From the IMG/VR virus record IMGVR_UViG_3300032665_000055, positions 1 to 47,195 of that record: DNA of 47,195 nucleotides, one strand, 5' to 3'. Under the pieces are notes generated by a model, which was not told where the DNA came from, made no database searches, and saw only the letters and a program-made list of their open reading frames with translations. Shown here one piece after another: positions 2,896-47,195 of the stretch. Position 1 is the first letter of the stretch, and every line of letters starts with the position of its first letter. The stretch comes from a virus (Duplodnaviria > Caudoviricetes). Position numbers and translations under genes: made by a program.

Positions 2896-3462
2896 TTAGT
2901 TGGCGAGATTGGATTCTTTAATCATCCGAGCAGCTTGCTTCAAAATGCACGTCCCTGTTGAGACGCTATTCCCGTCGCCAGCCGCTTTAATCTTATCGCC
3001 GTTGGCGATGCTGGAATACATTCCACGCCCGCCGTGAACAACATGAATCGAATCCCATTTCGCAAGCGGAATGTCGTTAAAGTGTTCGTCTTTTGATTTG
3101 ACGATTGCATCAATTCCGATTTGAGTTTCAACCATGCGGATAATGGATGAGGTTACAAATTGCCGATAATAATCGGCGTGAGATACTTTTTTATCCATGT
3201 TAGACGGCTCGGCCAGGCGCATCTTCAATTCGGCGAGTCCGTGACGGAAGCCTTGCACATACGCAGCCTCCAAAGTGTTGATTCCTTCCGCCAGCAAGTC
3301 GGCCCGCAATAAATCGTCTGCGGTGACTTCGAGATACAGTTTCATTATTTTCTCGTTCACCGTCGGTTCTGGCTGATGGTAGAAGCGCGACAAAAAGAAG
3401 TCGTCGGCGCATTTTTTCTCGTCGTTCGTCATGCTTCGCAGCTCGGTTTCGTTTGGTTTCAT
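2896..3462 (-). CDS. Chimeric ORF: 88 aa of cassette origin fused in frame to the last 100 aa of a resident phage gene
   Basis: Junction AEPSN|MDKK coincides with the cassette boundary GTTAGACGGC at 3199-3208. Confidence 0.75.
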   Translation of the reverse strand: MKPNETELRSMTNDEKKCADDFFLSRFYHQPEPTVNEKIMKLYLEVTADDLLRADLLAEGINTLEAAYVQGFRHGLAELKMRLAEPSNMDKKVSHADYYRQFVTSSIIRMVETQIGIDAIVKSKDEHFNDIPLAKWDSIHVVHGGRGMYSSIANGDKIKAAGDGNSVSTGTCILKQAARMIKESNLAN

Positions 3463-3789
3463 TTTGTTTCGTTATGGATTCCAGCCGTCAGAAAGTAGTG
3501 GAGCATATCCCGCTGCCATCCGTTCATTTCCATGTTACCAGTAGTTCCGCGACGGATTTTTATTTGGAACTCCACCACATTCAGATCACGGATGGAGCAT
3601 TCCGTCATTGGCTCGCGGCGCAGCCTGTCCCGCTCGTCGAGTAGGTCGCATAGTTCTGGTATTACTGTTTTCATATTAGTATATCTATCATTCGCCGTCT
3701 AACAACTCACTCCAGCCAACCGGCGTTACGCCTTGCCGTCCGCCTTCGCGGGCGATGCGCCCCGGTCGCCGGTGGCTGAGTTCGAGGCG
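3200..3789 (+). mobile_element. Integron gene cassette (590 bp, two inverted ORFs) inserted in a phage gene
   Basis: Starts G|TTAGACGGC (3199-3208), the exact complement of GCCGTCTAAC (3694-3703) that opens its attC. Excision restores ORF MKTRQDY-MDKKVSH. Confidence 0.88.
3459..3674 (-). CDS. Hypothetical cassette-borne protein
   Basis: 71-aa ORF, ATGA overlap with the next ORF, lies inside the cassette. Confidence 0.65.
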   Translation of the reverse strand: MKTVIPELCDLLDERDRLRREPMTECSIRDLNVVEFQIKIRRGTTGNMEMNGWQRDMLHYFLTAGIHNETK

Positions 3790-3795
3790 TAATCT
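3697..3795 (+). other. attC site (complete, hybrid R' after insertion)
   Basis: R'' GTCTAAC, 5-nt spacer, L'' ACTCCAGC, stem CCGGCG/CGCCGG, L' GCTGAGT, 7-nt spacer, R' GTAATCT. Extrahelical C and A on the left arm. Confidence 0.88.
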
Positions 3796-3809
3796 TGGCG
3801 TGTTTTCAT
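3790..3809 (-). pseudogene. Detached 5' end (MKTRQDY) of the gene interrupted by the cassette
   Basis: ATG AAA ACA CGC CAA GAT TA joins C ATG GAT AAA at 3199 in frame. Confidence 0.75.
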
Positions 3810-3851
3810 AATGTTTTTTGAGTTAGTGGTTAGTTGCAATATCTTTGAATT

Positions 3852-5991: not shown

Positions 5992-6080
5992 TCCTTCCCA
6001 TTAGTAAAACTTCAATCGTTCTGAAAAATAATTTTTAAGTTTTGTATTGAACAAATTGTGATAAATTTATTTTATGAAAA

Positions 6081-6119
6081 CCGCAACGCGGCGGCTTTGG
6101 CTCCGGGCAGTGGTTAGCA
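6081..6119 (-). other. Partial attC (R''-L'' arm only)
   Basis: Minus strand TGCTAAC-CACTG-CCCGGAGC-CAAAGCCGCCG; no matching right arm nearby. Confidence 0.75.
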
Positions 6120-6133
6120 GGCGAATTTGAGAT

Positions 6134-6502
6134 ATGAAAACTGAAACTCGACAATACAAAGACGTAGCGGGAAATCCCGTAACGCTCGACTGGCTGGTGA
6201 AAAACGAGCCGGAATGGGCAGCGAACCAAATCCGGCATCGTGACAAACTCGAAGCCGAACTCGCGGAAACCAAAACCTTGCTAGCCTATAAAAACGACAC
6301 GGCCAACACATTCATGGGGCAAATCAAAAAGCTCCAAGCGTCGGCGCACGAACTCGCGCTCTACTTGGACGAATACAACAAACAGGCCGGCGAGAATCAC
6401 GAACCGCTATACTGGATAGCCTGCCGAGCCTTGGACAGATACAAAGCAATCGGCGGCGTGGTAGAGCCTGCTAACGACCAAGCTGAGGCACCACGGAACT
6501 AA
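6134..6502 (+). CDS. Hypothetical cassette-borne phage-type protein
   Basis: 122 aa; C-terminus ANDQAEAPRN is encoded by the attC arm and stops in its loop. Confidence 0.75.
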   Translation: MKTETRQYKDVAGNPVTLDWLVKNEPEWAANQIRHRDKLEAELAETKTLLAYKNDTANTFMGQIKKLQASAHELALYLDEYNKQAGENHEPLYWIACRALDRYKAIGGVVEPANDQAEAPRN

Positions 6503-6578
6503 AAATATGAAACTGATAAAAAACCTACTCGCAAAACTGAAGCGTCCAACCGTGGTTGCCTCCGGCGACTGATTAGGC
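6469..6578 (-). other. attC site (complete, R'' mutated AAC>AAT)
   Basis: Minus strand GCCTAAT-CAGTC-GCCGGAGG-CAACCACGG ... CCGTGGTG-CCTCAGC-TTGGTC-GTTAGCA. Confidence 0.88.
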
Positions 6579-6627
6579 TGCTGGCTACAATTTGCAGACA
6601 AACTAAAAACGAAAAACATATAACAAA

Positions 6628-6750
6628 ATGAATCTGAAATCTGGAATCACACTCGTCGCGCTGATGTATCTCGGCGTAATCATATTCAACGTCGCACTCA
6701 TCGCCGGAATCGTCTGGGTTGCGTGGCACTTCATCAGTAAATGGTGGTAA
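6628..6750 (+). CDS. 40-aa membrane peptide, cassette-borne
   Basis: MNLKSGITLVALMYLGVIIFNVALIAGIVWVAWHFISKWW, read by hand; fills the cassette. Confidence 0.7.
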   Translation: MNLKSGITLVALMYLGVIIFNVALIAGIVWVAWHFISKWW

Positions 6751-6753
6751 GTG

Positions 6754-6804
6754 GCCTAACGTAAAAAGCTGAGCCACCGCCGACTCGCGGCGTGAACCGC
6801 GATA
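6754..6804 (-). other. Partial attC (L'-R' arm only)
   Basis: Minus strand TATCGCGGTTCACGCCGCGAGTCGGCGGTG-GCTCAGC-TTTTTAC-GTTAGGC. Confidence 0.8.
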
Positions 6805-6865
6805 AGTCCTTGCAAAAAAATTTTTCGATGTCAGTATTAAATCGTCGCCATTCATATCGGGGATA

Positions 6866-6942: not shown

Positions 6943-7074
6943 AATTTAATTTTATGAATCAACTTGACGAAATATCACACTCCGCCGAAAATGTAACACT
7001 CGCCTGCAAGAAATGTAATTTAGGCAAGGGCGACAAAATTCTTTACACGGAATGGAATCCTCCAATTTTAATCT

Positions 7075-8832
7075 ATGCCTCCAAAAATTAAAAAACTTTC
7101 TGCTGACGAGCAGAAATATATTGAAGTTGCCAATGCCGTTGGGAAAATGGCGCTGGATGGGTGGAAAGCTATCTTTGGAAATAAAATTGGCGCAATCCGT
7201 TCCGCTGAACATTTGCAGTCCGCCTGTATTGAGCAAGCGGAAAATTTTATCCAAAAGGGAATGGTGTTGCAGCCAAAGCAATGGCAAATGGCAGCAGCGG
7301 CTCGACTGGCTGATTATCGCTGTCCTAAATGCGAGGAGCTTCACGCCACCGGTCAGATGATTGCTAAAAAATGCCCTGATTGCGGCCCGCGTTATATCGG
7401 TGTTGGCGGCGCACGCGGCGGCGGAAAATCTCAATGGATGATTTCGCAGGTATGTTTAGACGATTGCCAAAGGTTTAAGGGGCTGTCGGTTTTGTATGTC
7501 CGCAAATCCGCCAAAACACTTCGCGCCCAAATGTCGTCACTTCTCCGCAAGACATTAAAGGTTCCCGCCGATTACAATTTCCGAGAGCAGGTTGGCGTTG
7601 TGGAATTTCCAAACGGCTCACAAATTACAATTCGGCACTTCAAAGATGAATCTGAAATTGATAATTTTTTAGGCGAAGAATATGACGTGATTGCCTACGA
7701 GGAGTTGACGACCCTTTCGGAAGAAAAATTCAAAAACCTCAATTCATGTCTTCGCACTTCAAAGCCTGGATGGCGTCCGCGCGTATATGCTTCATGGAAC
7801 TGGGGCGGTATCGGCCATGCTTGGGTTAAAAGATTTTTCTATGACCCGTTTTTGAAAAAGCAGGAAACAGATTCAAAATATATTTTAACGCTCGTCACCG
7901 ACAACCGGCATAACGACCCTGAATACATCGGACAGCTCGATAGTTATGTGGGTTGGAAATATCAAAGTTGGAGACTTGGTAATCCTGATATTGTTTCCGG
8001 CAATTTTTTTACTCACTACCGCGAGGATGTCCACGTTTATCCATGCGACTGTCCAAATTGTAAATCCGAAGCAACATTCATTAAAAAGTTTGGGCAGATT
8101 AAATGCGCGGCCTGTGAGCATGAGTTTAATGGAACAACTTTTCAAGACGCAGACGCGCAACGATGGTTTGGCTCGATGGACTACGGCTCAAGCCATCCAA
8201 ATTGCTTTCATCTATTCGCAGAAAACTTTGAAGGAAATGTTTTCACAGTTGGAGAGCTTTGGACTTTAGACACTGGCATTTCTGAAAATTCCGAATCCTT
8301 CCGCGATATGCTCCGGCTCCACAATTTAGAAGTTGGCGACTTGGATTTTATTTTTGCCGGCCAAGATATTCTAAAAACCGACCGCAAAACAAAAGATGAC
8401 GGCTCAACAATTGCGACCGAGTATCAGGAAAACGGAATTACACTTACACCGATTCACATTAACCGCGTGAACGCATTTTCTCAAATGCAAGAACGGCTGG
8501 GCGATGTTGAGCGTGGAAAATTTCCGACGTGGTTTATTCACAAGTCATGCACAAATCTGAGGACTCAAATTCAAACAGCGCAATACGACGACAAAAAGCC
8601 AAACGACATCCTTAAACAAAATGCGGACAGAGAAACTGGGGAAGGTGGCGATGATGCCCTGGAATCCGCACGCAACGGAATTGTTGGAGCATATTCAAAT
8701 CTTTTAACAGATTGCAAACCCGTTCAAATGGGTAGCTGGAAAGGAATGAGTCATCAGATTGAACAGGGCGGATATATTGACGTAGATGCGATTATTGCGG
8801 AATCAGAGGCGGCGGAGTTGGCGCGTCGTTAA
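7075..8832 (+). CDS. terL: Terminase large subunit with two zinc-ribbon insertions
   Basis: Walker A GGARGGGKS, Walker B VIAYEE, nuclease MDYG and DDALES; position before portal. Confidence 0.92.
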   Translation: MPPKIKKLSADEQKYIEVANAVGKMALDGWKAIFGNKIGAIRSAEHLQSACIEQAENFIQKGMVLQPKQWQMAAAARLADYRCPKCEELHATGQMIAKKCPDCGPRYIGVGGARGGGKSQWMISQVCLDDCQRFKGLSVLYVRKSAKTLRAQMSSLLRKTLKVPADYNFREQVGVVEFPNGSQITIRHFKDESEIDNFLGEEYDVIAYEELTTLSEEKFKNLNSCLRTSKPGWRPRVYASWNWGGIGHAWVKRFFYDPFLKKQETDSKYILTLVTDNRHNDPEYIGQLDSYVGWKYQSWRLGNPDIVSGNFFTHYREDVHVYPCDCPNCKSEATFIKKFGQIKCAACEHEFNGTTFQDADAQRWFGSMDYGSSHPNCFHLFAENFEGNVFTVGELWTLDTGISENSESFRDMLRLHNLEVGDLDFIFAGQDILKTDRKTKDDGSTIATEYQENGITLTPIHINRVNAFSQMQERLGDVERGKFPTWFIHKSCTNLRTQIQTAQYDDKKPNDILKQNADRETGEGGDDALESARNGIVGAYSNLLTDCKPVQMGSWKGMSHQIEQGGYIDVDAIIAESEAAELARR

Positions 8833-17555: not shown

Positions 17556-17996
17556 ATGACAACCGCTGGCAATGACGCGACTCTTTGGAGTCCAAACTTT
17601 CAGGTTTATGGCAATTCCTACATCGTCTGGGGGACGGAAGGAATCATGGGCAATTACATCGTCCTTTCCGCCAGCGAAAGCCAGCGGATTGAAGAGATTG
17701 ACATCATGCAGGGCGCAGGCTTTACGGCCATTGTCGTTTTACTGATGGACGGTAACGACGTTGACATTGAAGTGATTGACGACACGTCCATCACGCCGCC
17801 GACGATTGCTGGAAATCCGTATTTGTTGGTGACTCCTTATGGCACAATCCCGATGTTGCTTGTCGGAAATTCTGCCAACCAAGCTCCGAAACGTGAAGGT
17901 CATCGCAGCTTCAAATTCAAATCGTTCACGGCCATCAGCGGCCTCCACATTCTGGTTGGAATCGGTATGCTTGCCATGTCATTTTTTAATCAATGA
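17556..17996 (+). CDS. Putative tail tube protein
   Basis: Small beta-rich protein upstream of the chaperone and tape measure genes. Confidence 0.5.
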   Translation: MTTAGNDATLWSPNFQVYGNSYIVWGTEGIMGNYIVLSASESQRIEEIDIMQGAGFTAIVVLLMDGNDVDIEVIDDTSITPPTIAGNPYLLVTPYGTIPMLLVGNSANQAPKREGHRSFKFKSFTAISGLHILVGIGMLAMSFFNQ

Positions 17997-18772
17997 ATAT
18001 CAGGGCCAACATACCAGACATGAATTTGATTGGTGTTTATTCCATTATAAACACAGTCAATGGGAAGCGGTATGTTGGCAGCACGGCGATTTCATTCTCT
18101 GCCAGATTAGGTCAGCATGAGGTTTTACTTCGCGCCGGCAAACATACTTCCCGCCATCTTCAATCTGCTTGGGTTAAATATGGTGCGGAATCGTTTCAGT
18201 TTTGCGTTGAAGAAATTTGCGATGCTTCAAACGTCTTAATCCGTGAACAGTATTTTTTGGATTTTTACAAATCATACAATGATGAATTTGGTTACAACAT
18301 TTTGCCAAAGGCGGGGAGCCATTTAGGCGCAAAGCGCACAGACGAATCAAAAAAGAAAATGGGAAAATGGAAAAGGACAGCGGAACTTGGGGCTAAAATT
18401 TCTGAAGCGTTAAAGGGTCGCAAGCTGTCACAAGAACACGTTGAGAAAATGCGCGGCAGAAAGTTCTCGGAAGAAACCCGCGCTAAAATGAAGGCTGGAC
18501 ACGCTCGCGCAAGAAGCAATCCAGAAGTCATTGCGAGAATGGCTGCGGCTCAAAAAGGTAAAAAACATTCTGCCGAACACATTGTTAATCGTGTATCTAA
18601 AGTGATTGGAAAGAAACATTCTCCTGAATGGATTGAGGCAATTCGCCGTGGAAATGTTGGTAAGAAAAGAAGTGAAGAATCAAAATCCAACATTCGCGCC
18701 GCGCAATCAAAAAGAATTGAATCATTAAAGAAAACTGTCGCTTTGCGAAAGATGGCTTTGGCATTAAATTAA
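17993..18772 (+). CDS. GIY-YIG homing endonuclease with NUMOD3-type repeats
   Basis: GVYSIINTVNGKRYVGST, REQYFLD, GYNI; repeated G(K/R)K(H/R)SxE. Confidence 0.92.
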   Translation: MNIRANIPDMNLIGVYSIINTVNGKRYVGSTAISFSARLGQHEVLLRAGKHTSRHLQSAWVKYGAESFQFCVEEICDASNVLIREQYFLDFYKSYNDEFGYNILPKAGSHLGAKRTDESKKKMGKWKRTAELGAKISEALKGRKLSQEHVEKMRGRKFSEETRAKMKAGHARARSNPEVIARMAAAQKGKKHSAEHIVNRVSKVIGKKHSPEWIEAIRRGNVGKKRSEESKSNIRAAQSKRIESLKKTVALRKMALALN

Positions 18773-43298: not shown

Positions 43299-44075
43299 TT
43301 ATTTTCTTTTGGTTTGTTTGTTGTATTTGTTTTCTACATCACGCCACCAGTTAGTGTCAGCAGCGTAAATTTTATTGAGACTTTGAAAGTAGTCTCCTTT
43401 TCCATCCCAATGCGAATAAGTATTGCGGCAGAGCTTAATGCAGATTGCGCGGGCGGTTGACTCTGGATAGCCGATGAGTTTTCCGCTGACGCGATGTTCG
43501 CAACCGTATTCAAATTTCCGACTGTTTTCGTGGATTCGGATTGCATCTGCGAGTCTTTCATAATTTATGATTGGTTTAATTTGTGCGCTGGCAGAAATTG
43601 CAGAGATTAAAACAATCGCGGCCAAATGCGCCCATGATTTTTTTTGCTGAATCCTGATTACAGTTTGAAAACAAACACCAAACATTTTTGCCAGCTTTCG
43701 GCACGAAACAACTCCTTTTGATTCGCGTATTTTTAATATATCTGACTCATTTAACTTTGAGCTTCCATTTAATTGCCCGCGAGATGGATTCCATCTCCCC
43801 TTTTTAACGCAATCCCTAATATTGTCTCCATCTGTCCCCAAAAACAAATGCGCCGGATTAACACAAGAAGGATTGTCGCAGCGATGGCAAACTTTAAGGG
43901 ATAAATTAAAATCACCAAATTTTAATTTGTAAGCCAAGCGATGCGCCCGCCATTGTTTTCCATTAAAAACGGCAGAACCATATCCACGTTCATCAAACTT
44001 TGCTCTCTGCCAATTCCAGCACGAATTTTCACCGTTGGATTTATCTGCGTTTTCCCAAAATGTTTTTTCGGTCAT
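43299..44075 (-). CDS. HNH endonuclease fused in frame to a secreted lysozyme-like domain
   Basis: CWNWQ, RAHRLAY, VCHRCDNPSCVNPAHLFLGT..DN, HTH ending KSWAHL; then AAIVLISAISASAQ and LADAIRIHE..YG. Confidence 0.8.
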   Translation of the reverse strand: MTEKTFWENADKSNGENSCWNWQRAKFDERGYGSAVFNGKQWRAHRLAYKLKFGDFNLSLKVCHRCDNPSCVNPAHLFLGTDGDNIRDCVKKGRWNPSRGQLNGSSKLNESDILKIRESKGVVSCRKLAKMFGVCFQTVIRIQQKKSWAHLAAIVLISAISASAQIKPIINYERLADAIRIHENSRKFEYGCEHRVSGKLIGYPESTARAICIKLCRNTYSHWDGKGDYFQSLNKIYAADTNWWRDVENKYNKQTKRK

Positions 44076-44084
44076 AAAACAAAA

Positions 44085-44218
44085 ACCATCCCCAAGCCGT
44101 GAAGTGATACCCGCGAACAGAGAGCGGCAACCGTGCAAGGGAATGGTGAATTTGTTTGTCATGTTCTTTGTGCCGTATCAAGGCGCTTTTAGTTTTGCAC
44201 GATTAAAATAATTGTCAA
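44085..44218 (-). promoter_or_regulatory. Promoter and structured leader of the HNH element
   Basis: TTGACA at 44218-44213; stem 44085-44093/44139-44147; crossing TGATAC/GTATCA. Confidence 0.45.
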
Positions 44219-44250
44219 GTGATTGCCAGCGCGAGAAAAATAGATTTCAT
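44215..44250 (-). pseudogene. Orphan signal-peptide start MKSIFLALAIT*
   Basis: ATGA-coupled to the upstream gene; complements the truncated signal at about 43626. Confidence 0.55.
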
Positions 44251-44930
44251 TTTGTCGGCCTTTCAAAACCTTTATATTTCGCTTTCCAATTTTCGCACCA
44301 GTCTTTTGAAAGAGCCTGCAAGCCAATTCCAAAATCCTTCGCGCAACGGCGAAACGCAGCGGTCTTTGCTGATTCGTAGGCATCTCCGTAATTTCCCTTT
44401 GCGTTAGACTTGAAATAATTTCCGTCACCAATCGCAACGCCGACTTTTGCGCCACGAATCAGCAACATCCCCTCCACATAAACCCGCACGGCCGGCTTTG
44501 GCGGATTGCCTGCGCTAAAATCCTCCTGCCATGAACGAATGATTTCAAAACTCCATTGTCCCAATCCAATGACATCAGAAAGCCGGTTGCGGATTGCGGA
44601 GTGTTCCAGATACAAAAGATTTGTGTCACCACCTGCACCGCGTTGAAAATCTGAATCAGGGAAATCCGCCCGCAATTCTTTTTGTTCTGCCTTTGTCAAA
44701 ATCAGCGTTGACGCTTTCAATGTCGCTTGCGCTAAAAGTTGCTGGATTGCGGCAGGGCGTTCAATCGCTTCTGATTTTTTAATCGCAGGAGCCAATGCCG
44801 TTTCCGCCAAGACTTCCGCATCTTCCGGCGGAGCAACTGCCGAAACATTTTTATCAATCACGGCAAGTTGCTTTTCGACAAAAGCATCGTCGGATTGTTT
44901 TGGCGCAAATTTACGCTTTGGTAGGTTCAT
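44247..44930 (-). CDS. Rad52/Sak/Mgm101-like single-strand annealing protein
   Basis: YLEHSAIRNRLSDVIGLGQW, DAYESAKTAAFRRCAKDFGIG; start taken at MNLPKRK. Confidence 0.8.
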   Translation of the reverse strand: MNLPKRKFAPKQSDDAFVEKQLAVIDKNVSAVAPPEDAEVLAETALAPAIKKSEAIERPAAIQQLLAQATLKASTLILTKAEQKELRADFPDSDFQRGAGGDTNLLYLEHSAIRNRLSDVIGLGQWSFEIIRSWQEDFSAGNPPKPAVRVYVEGMLLIRGAKVGVAIGDGNYFKSNAKGNYGDAYESAKTAAFRRCAKDFGIGLQALSKDWCENWKAKYKGFERPTK

Positions 44931-45135
44931 ATTTCGAGAATTGATGATGCGGTTTGATTTCAGCCAAAAAGAATTTGCCGTGAGATTCAGCTTCACGAAA
45001 AGCCGCGAACTTTTCCGGCGTCACGGCATTGTAGCCATAATGCCCGCCACGGCGGAAATAGATATGCAAAACTTGTTGCTCCTCATCATAGCAGAATTTT
45101 TCAATGAGTGACGATGTTGTAATTACGATGTGCAT
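44911..45135 (-). CDS. KTSC domain protein
   Basis: SSLIEKFCYD..L.I.F..GG.Y.Y..V, AESHGKFF...IK. Confidence 0.88.
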   Translation of the reverse strand: MHIVITTSSLIEKFCYDEEQQVLHIYFRRGGHYGYNAVTPEKFAAFREAESHGKFFLAEIKPHHQFSKYEPTKA

Positions 45136-46756: not shown

Positions 46757-47195
46757 TTATTCAAGTTTTAAGGCTTCGTTTTTGGCAAATTCAAAAGCCT
46801 CGGCACGCTCCTGACTTTTCCGCGAGCCATCATCAGGAAATTCAGATTCATTTGATTTCAAAATTCCAACTTTATCCCATTCTTCTAATGATTTAAAAAG
46901 ACATCCCATTTTAACGAATCGCTTTCCATCCATTGCTAAAATTGAAAAAACTTGATAGCGATACAAACCTGAAAAGATGCGGATGGATTTGATTTTAATT
47001 CCGCGCAAGTTAGCACCGCACAAGTTAGCATCGCGCAAGTTAGCATCGCGCAAGTCAGCACCGCGCAAGCTAGTATCGCACAAGTCAGCACCGCGCAAGT
47101 CAGCACCGCACAAGTTAGCATCGCGCAAGTCAGCACCGCGCAAGCTAGTATCGCACAAGTCAGCACCGCGCAAGTCAGCACCGCACAAGTTAGCA
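46757..47195 (-). CDS. Pentapeptide-repeat protein, 3' part
   Basis: ADLRG/ANLCG repeats, then a C-terminal domain VKMGCLFKSLEEW. Confidence 0.9.
   Translation of the reverse strand, partial: ANLCGADLRGADLCDTSLRGADLRDANLCGADLRGADLCDTSLRGADLRDANLRDANLCGANLRGIKIKSIRIFSGLYRYQVFSILAMDGKRFVKMGCLFKSLEEWDKVGILKSNESEFPDDGSRKSQERAEAFEFAKNEALKLE
47001..47195. repeat. 15-bp tandem repeat array (right part)
   Basis: About 13 units, continuous with position 1 (..ttagca|tcgcgcaagt). Confidence 0.95.

Follow-up and report, generated by a model that had tools for sequence, protein, structure and literature searches.

A gene cassette with its own attC site inserted base-precisely into a conserved gene of a phage without a detectable tyrosine recombinase

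A conserved phage gene is interrupted at codon 7 (Tyr7) by a 590-bp gene cassette whose two ends coincide with the crossover point of its own attC site, and an uninterrupted allele of the same gene is preserved on another viral contig. The locus lies in a leftward block of small genes in the window, by which the whole 47,195-base stretch of DNA analysed is meant; the window carries a tailed-phage gene set comprising terminase, portal, protease, major head protein, helicases, primase and a Rad52/Mgm101-like protein. The cassette probably came as a circle from the reversed array of a related phage and was probably inserted by an integron integrase acting in trans, most likely that of the host. 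At base precision, the locus records how such phages likely exchange small genes.

Cassette boundaries and the interrupted gene

The features of the locus, and of a second array nearby, are as follows.

2896..3198, minus strand: 3' part of the target gene, 100 aa from Met8, phrog_25437 family (homologues)
3790..3809, minus strand: 5' stub of the target gene, running from the start codon into Tyr7, of which it includes the first two bases (relatives, L001)
3200..3789, plus strand (the attC top strand; both genes on the minus strand): inserted gene cassette, 590 bp (junctions, empty allele in L001)
3199..3208, plus strand: left junction, target G plus cassette R' half, G|TTAGACGGC (sequence; contigs of X13, X15 and X17)
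3789..3795, plus strand: right junction, hybrid R' G|TAATCT, giving the target triplet GTA (sequence, fold)
3697..3789, plus strand: attC body (boxes; own covariance model, 66.7 bits, E 1.3e-17; fold)
3459..3674, minus strand: cassette ORF1, 71 aa, its stop overlapping the ORF2 start (ATGA)
3199..3462, minus strand: cassette ORF2, 88 codons up to the crossover, with ...AEPSN at its end (relatives)
2896..3462, minus strand: 188-aa fusion ORF, ORF2 plus the target 3' part (translation)
3726..3809, minus strand: 27-aa stub peptide, seven target residues plus attC bottom strand, stop in the loop (sequence)
6075..6810, minus strand: second antisense cassette array (half attC, ORF 6628-6750, full attC 6469-6578, ORF 6134-6502, half attC)

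On the plus strand the left junction reads ...ATCCATG|TTAGACGGC and the right junction ...GAGGCG|TAATCTTGG. The R'' 10-mer GCCGTCTAAC (3694-3703) is the exact complement of 3199-3208, and each of these 10-mers occurs once in the window. Further copies of the 10-bp core were found elsewhere in the attC family (four in L090, three in L028 and two in L091), so the core marks cassette ends and is not unique to the 590-bp cassette. As expected of an integrated gene cassette, the insert opens with the TT half of R', and its last base is the G (G3789) of its own attC. Joining the flanks in silico yielded a 107-aa ORF without an internal stop. Among the cut pairs tried for this rebuild (left 3170-3230, right 3760-3809), only three gave the 107-aa ORF, and these are equivalent through the shared GT. 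With insertion at G|T, 2 bp (GT) are common to both ends and zero target bases are duplicated or lost. At the DNA level, the empty site is represented by viral contig L001, in which the gene is uninterrupted (CCATG|TAATCTTG) and 52 of 60 bases are identical across the site. A sequence-only reading of this DNA had proposed that 3200-3789 is a cassette ending in a full attC with an exactly complementary 10-bp R'', and that its removal restores an intact 107-aa ORF. The first proposal is confirmed by the junctions and the cut-pair test, and the second is borne out and now joined by the empty allele of L001.

The left junction was bridged without mismatch by contigs of runs X13, X15 and X17, of which X15 belongs to a different study and year. 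The right junction was bridged by at least 31 bases in X1 and X2 only, which are possible sources of the window, and was crossed with 21 bases (X14) and 29 bases (X15) on the short side. Neither an empty-site nor a circle-junction joint was present in the contigs of eight of the 20 listed runs, contigs being a form of data that drops rare variants, and viral and metagenome contig searches placed the exact 590-bp cassette in no other context. A 195-base contig of X13, aligning on 3699-3813, carries the attC body and the TAATC junction as in the window, with a different R'' (GCAGCCTAAC) and different upstream sequence; at a depth of 2.6, it hints at a second cassette at the site or at a chimeric contig.

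Uninterrupted relatives of the rebuilt 107-aa protein were recognized by their N-termini. A start like MKTRQDY, which the sequence-only reading had expected among homologues, was present as MKTRQDYMD in 3 of the 19 homologues of the target 3' part, and TRQDYMDKK in a fourth; the rebuilt ORF matched those three relatives at 84/104, 81/107 and 79/104 residues (76-81%). Of 116 aligned relatives in the family, 110 retain Arg4 and 114 retain Tyr7. In a confident structure model of the intact homologue P0002 (pLDDT 96), residues 1-7, which are cut off in the fusion, are ordered, and Arg4 and Tyr7 lie in a helix. A start at profile position 9 or later was seen in only 4 of the best 150 family matches. 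The family comprises 2206 clusters at 50% identity and has a confidently predicted, small helical fold. It occurs in 26 GenBank phage records, and all 20 among the matches listed are annotated as hypothetical. Searches with the family gave no Pfam match, no PDB sequence match better than E 0.03 and no Foldseek match at E<=0.001, and its Atlas clusters are unnamed.

The attC site and the reversed arrays of related phages

Read on the plus strand, the attC consists of R'' (3697-3703), a 5-nt spacer, L'' (3709-3716), a terminal loop, L' (3775-3781), a 7-nt spacer and G3789. R'' is GTCTAAC and the circle-form R' is GTTAGAC, in agreement with the core consensus RYYYAAC/GTTRRRY and complementary over 10 of 10 positions; as inserted, R' is the hybrid GTAATCT. 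The L'' and L' boxes are paired, and on the bottom strand a G near position 16 and a T near position 23, counted from R'', remain unpaired. The available text of PMC5027507 describes L''/L' boxes, an unpaired central spacer, extrahelical bases near L'' and a variable terminal structure as attC features; its labels G16 and T23 for attCaadA7 fit the unpaired G and T of the window, on a numbering convention that we infer. In the circle form, R' and R'' of the bottom strand pair over 10 bp and the fold reaches -33.6 kcal/mol, against -22.4 +/- 2.7 kcal/mol for shuffled sequences, of which 1 in 300 was as low. As inserted, the fold reaches -23.4 kcal/mol against these -33.6 kcal/mol, and the hybrid R' is unpaired with R''. 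Judged by this anatomy as read from the bases, the attC is genuine.

The sequence-only reading had also staked its attC on a covariance-model score. Such a model, R1, was built from 22 attC sites of other phages that had been found by their likeness to the window. In its alignment, 89.6% of the cells were paired, and the covariation score was reached by none of 500 shuffles and lay above slid controls too. With this model, exactly two sites were found in the window, at 66.7 bits in the cassette and at 68.7 bits in the second array. Since the training sites were found by window likeness, the independent test lies in those bacterial matches that adjoin intI, described below.

The unpaired bases make the plus strand the attC top strand, so both cargo genes are antisense to the attC. 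In the usual layout a gene reads towards its own attC on the top strand; here, both ORFs lie on the bottom strand. This reversal was examined in 68 phage and 36 bacterial sites, which make up 104 of 108 model matches, the window's two having been dropped before counting; the matches omitted from the 104 are that of L025 (a near copy of the window), two of L085 and a truncated one of L030. The longest ORF between neighbouring sites was antisense in 37 of 55 phage intervals and in 0 of 30 bacterial ones. The calling by longest ORF is crude, with 18 of the 55 phage intervals scored as sense, and the phage share is understated because the top strand has shadow frames running through the attC. Reading phase was followed in bottom-strand frames of at least 30 codons that cross R'. 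The core AAC was read as Asn in 40 of 44 such phage frames (p 2e-15 against one third) and in 7 of 12 bacterial frames (p 0.07). Since phage records entered the comparison through the resemblance of their attCs to the window, these counts describe that family, and sites within one phage are not independent.

Close attCs lie in antisense arrays of other phages without PF00589, and the cassette attC is 93-94% identical to such sites, closer than to any bacterial site found. An exact pattern made from the cassette attC was found in three viral contigs, and one made from the second-array attC in eight. Five complete or near-complete phage contigs carry 1 to 18 model matches each; among the complete or near-complete contigs are G407, with 18 attC matches at 56.2-64.3 kb, G406, with 10 at 56.6-62.5 kb, and G412, also with 10, in none of which was PF00589 found. 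No attC match was obtained in GenBank phages. The arrays of L091, L095 and L090, from integrase-free phages, are headed by short inverted cores (CCTAAT or GCTTAT, 5-7 nt, GTTAG), which we take to resemble attI simple sites.

The second array of the window lies just before the terminase and is separate from the 590-bp insertion. It has ORFs of 122 and 40 aa and a full attC on the minus strand, with both a stop and a new start codon in its loop; in the 122-aa cassette, the core at 6113-6122 is complementary to that at 6466-6475 over 10 bp. In two other phage contigs, an 879-bp block (L028 291-1167, L091 8813-7935) is 98% identical with different neighbours, starting at an R'' core and ending at an R' core. 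Together with the X13 contig, this block suggests that exchange may also take place on the R'' side or inside attC bodies.

Integrase, target triplet and competing explanations

A search of the window in six frames gave no PF00589 tyrosine recombinase, although the control genomes were positive in 14 of 14 cases, and the view of the phage as IntI-less therefore stands. The same domain was found in none of 11 virus records, namely the window and ten others, nine of which carry the attC family of the cassette and five of which are at least 90% complete. The record is thus not a complete integron, in which intI and attI would lie in cis.

R1 matched 13 of 151 genomes in the phylum of a Verrucomicrobia-labelled record; for the phylum of a Proteobacteria-labelled one the figure was 3 of 151, and at E<=1e-10 it matched 21 of 151 genomes of one order. 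An intI above the TIGR02249 cut-off lies about 1 kb from the start of two arrays in G085. An intI above the cut-off was found in none of the five genomes with the closest bacterial attCs, these genomes being possibly incomplete, and a terminase match in none of 401 genomes of the suspected host phylum. These two results make the host phylum, that of the Verrucomicrobia-labelled record, a lead and not a result. Two other searches for the host gave candidates that were rejected: the attC pattern had eight matches in species-representative genomes, all by chance and without an R''/L'' half, and a DNA search of the 401 genomes had nine matches, weak and partial, of which none was established as an attC. 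We infer that the host supplied the enzyme.

The target triplet sets this insertion apart. The available text of Loot et al. (bioRxiv 10.1101/2022.09.11.507474) gives an attG consensus of GWT at -1..+2 for IntI1-3 with a CRGM hotspot motif, and that of PMC10127599 gives GNT for IntI1 secondary sites. The phage target is G|TA and has TTGG where the hotspot has CRGM at +6..+9. The slack described for IntI1 in PMC10127599 lies at the second base only, in the text available, whereas the phage target differs by an A at the third base. The GTA core noticed at the outset as non-canonical is accordingly upheld, outside both GWT and GNT. In the attC family, R' begins with GTT in 66 of 68 phage and 34 of 36 bacterial sites, and relaxed specificity has to be assumed for a GTA target against this near-universal GTT. 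As Tyr7 is kept in 114 of 116 relatives, the target was GTA at the time of insertion and not a GTT that drifted later. Either the integrase tolerates more at the third base than IntI1-3 do, or a rare event was kept. With this locus, the specificity of secondary sites extends to GTA. No attI-like L box was found before the target, unlike at the heads of the three other phage arrays.

With one attC, no PF00589 and the other full attC 2.7 kb off on the opposite strand, the insertion acts like attC x attG and is by definition a SALIN; the target departs from the attG consensus and was for this reason not filed as a standard attG. Lone cassettes at secondary sites in bacterial genomes are reported in the available text of Loot et al. 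(10.1101/2022.09.11.507474), where a lone aadB cassette in plasmids is also cited as a natural precedent. The present locus resembles those SALINs in having one cassette at a non-att site, no integrase nearby, a single crossover after G and a disrupted gene, and differs in its phage-gene target, the GTA in place of GWT, the lack of CRGM, the antisense phage-derived cargo and two in-frame junctions. In phages, Qi et al. 2023 (PMC9892861, available text) described 17 CALINs, for which at least two attCs were required, found that IntI1 recombined five of six phage attCs tested, and proposed off-target homologous or illegitimate recombination as the route of entry. The two cases share attC sites in integrase-free phages. 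The single cassette with a reconstructable empty site points to site-specific entry, unlike those CALINs, and at least two clustered attCs are not present, as there is one at the locus and one full plus two half sites in the second array. The main text of Qi et al. (PMC9892861) gave no matches for 'antisense', 'single attC' or 'SALIN'. Chromosomal integrons of the G085 type share the attC family by covariance model and have intI adjoining two arrays; in their phylum, cassettes are sense in 30 of 30 intervals and lie behind intI, and phase locking is not significant, whereas the cassette of the window is antisense. Among the papers listed by a literature search covering mainly sources other than subscription journals, none dealt with antisense phage cassettes or with an insertion of a cassette in a phage gene for which an empty allele exists. 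Lone secondary-site cassettes and phage attC clusters are already published, and the locus is not a new kind of system; it is a new variant by virtue of lying in a phage, carrying reversed cargo of apparent phage origin, occupying a GTA target and having both junctions in frame, a novelty on which the supplementary CALIN boundaries of Qi et al. may bear.

The steps of the probable route are drawn from established IntI chemistry and the anatomy of the locus. An IntI acting in trans would excise the cassette as a circle from an antisense array. It would then cut the bottom strand of the folded attC at AA|C and that of the phage at TA|C, one strand pair would be exchanged over the shared GT, and replication would resolve the junction, as in attC x attG. 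Since both genes run opposite to the attC, insertion in the canonical orientation would place them co-directionally with the leftward phage operon, and phage transcription would express the cargo. From the target start codon, the stub would read 20 residues into the hairpin and stop; ORF1 and the ATGA-coupled ORF2 would follow, with ORF2 running into target Met8. The fusion is in frame since the core AAC is read as Asn in the same phase as the target TAC (Tyr7), which holds for both junctions. As the hybrid R' no longer pairs with R'', re-excision is likely to be poor, and an insertion so hard to reverse could serve as the one-cassette seed of a new array.

Several other explanations have to be weighed against this route. 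An enzyme supplied by a co-infecting or ancestral phage with IntI or a related tyrosine recombinase, carrying out the same site-specific event, is a less probable alternative that keeps some weight: no bacterial site found is as near to the attC as those of other phages (93-94%), GTA lies outside the target consensus of IntI1-3, and complete integrons in temperate phages are listed by Qi et al. (PMC9892861, available text). It has to contend with the lack of PF00589 in all 11 virus records, five of them near complete, and with the intI found in the likely host phylum beside arrays matched by R1. By sequence, a phage-encoded integrase in trans and that of the host cannot be distinguished. The cargo could also have been an ordinary host integron cassette, excised from a host array and delivered into the phage, as the sequence-only reading had it. 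Close counterparts of the phage-array attCs do exist in bacterial genomes of one order (L108, L111), and IntI is known to insert cassettes outside att sites (Loot, 10.1101/2022.09.11.507474, available text). Even so, this origin is unlikely, as none of the 30 bacterial cassette intervals was antisense, the relative of ORF1 is an attC-free gene in a phage operon, and the exact attC half occurs in viral contigs, whereas the eight species-representative matches, obtained with a looser pattern, and the weak ones in 9 of the 401 genomes are due to chance. Instead, the cassette is likely to be phage-pool cargo and not a host gene, given its antisense genes, the near-identical attCs in arrays of integrase-free phages and the standing of ORF1 as an ordinary phage operon gene. 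Of that earlier account, then, the circular attC cassette, its single crossover at G|T in a secondary site (supported by the junctions), the IntI-less phage, the GTA core and the lost stop hold, but the delivery of host cargo from integron to phage does not.

Recombination without site specificity fits the locus poorly. The phage encodes a Rad52/Mgm101-like annealing protein (44247-44996), its second array (6075-6810) ends in half attCs like those left by imprecise capture or decay, and this is the route proposed for phage CALINs in the available text of Qi et al. (PMC9892861). An illegitimate or microhomology event is nevertheless very improbable here, with only 2 bp shared, both ends on the attC crossover and target bases neither lost nor duplicated. 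An assembly chimera of two phages joined through the attC repeat is barely credible: the attC family is repeated in the community and the firmest support for the right junction comes from X1 and X2, possible sources of the window, but the left junction is mismatch-free in three runs, X14 and X15 cross the right one, and the flanks rebuild one gene.

The preferred reading, insertion of a phage-derived circle by an integrase in trans, has several consequences. The base-precise insertion and the known empty allele speak for site-specific entry into integrase-free phages, as against the illegitimate recombination suggested in the available text of PMC9892861, and the cassette attC and the empty target form a defined substrate pair for testing. 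The locus also links the origin of cassette genes with the birth of arrays, as one cargo gene has an ordinary phage gene as its counterpart elsewhere and the insertion resembles an array of a single cassette. A more tentative extension is that a group of integrase-free phages may run its own reversed and codon-phase-locked cassette system on a borrowed integrase, with cassettes of phage genes moving between phages, arrays founded in Tyr or Asn codons of phage genes and in-frame chimeras formed in one step; the present locus might then be a newborn array, at which a second cassette has perhaps arrived.

Cargo genes, fusion product and phage record

ORF1 matched no Pfam and no PHROG family. A relative with 90% identity occurs as an ordinary gene of an operon in L106, L107 and L102, which represent one phage population; no attC precedes it, and an antisense array lies two genes downstream of it. 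In metagenome contigs, this relative was missed with a single query and found with an alignment query. No loci of ORF2 were found in viral contigs. ORF2 is a mosaic, its first half matching P0024/P0034 and its second half P0020-P0023, with the switch near QPEPT, and both families end in LAEPSN-like read-ins. Furthermore, four of five ORF2 relatives end in AEPSN or AEPPN plus three residues, which is the same read-in to an attC as in ORF2. A promoter-like site at 3705-3678 (9/12), from a search that gave 8 such sites against 4.1 +/- 2.3 in shuffles, was rejected, its -10 box being too near the ORF1 start.

In the excised circle, the stop of ORF2 lies inside the attC; in the phage, the frame reads on to 188 aa, in keeping with the earlier suggestion that ORF2 lost an attC-encoded stop and became a chimera. 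The 188-aa fusion is the only member of its 90% cluster and is present on 12 contigs. Its structure model, made without an alignment, reached a pLDDT of only 36 and was uninformative. The 88-aa N-terminus is not a routine part of the family, as the ORF2 sequence was found in 0 of the 150 best family representatives. The homologue sets of the target 3' part (19) and of ORF2 were length-limited and could not include the fusion itself. Lacking Arg4 and Tyr7 of the target family, the fusion would likely be impaired. These lost residues, the rarity of late starts (4 of 150) and the absence of the ORF2 sequence from those 150 representatives make the fusion protein a one-off that is likely impaired. 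It is probably a by-product, and the gain of the phage, if any, is more likely to lie in the cargo genes than in the fusion. The chance of an in-frame landing is one third, so that one case is no proof of selection.

The record is classed by CheckV as linear and 43% complete. Its two ends (1-386 and 46757-47195) belong to one pentapeptide-repeat gene with a 15-base repeat, and despite the 43% estimate the phage genome is therefore probably a full circle broken at this repeat. At least 20 runs containing the stretch, among the matches listed, are lake-water or freshwater metagenomes from 2019-2023, and none of the matches listed is an RNA run. An Rfam scan of the window gave one chance match, away from the cassette locus. 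The window also holds a free-standing homing endonuclease gene of GIY-YIG type (17993-18772) and an HNH endonuclease gene (43299-44162). In addition, a 45-aa ORF (6954-7091), flanked by the second array and the terminase, bears a resemblance, judged by eye, to the end of an HNH nuclease.
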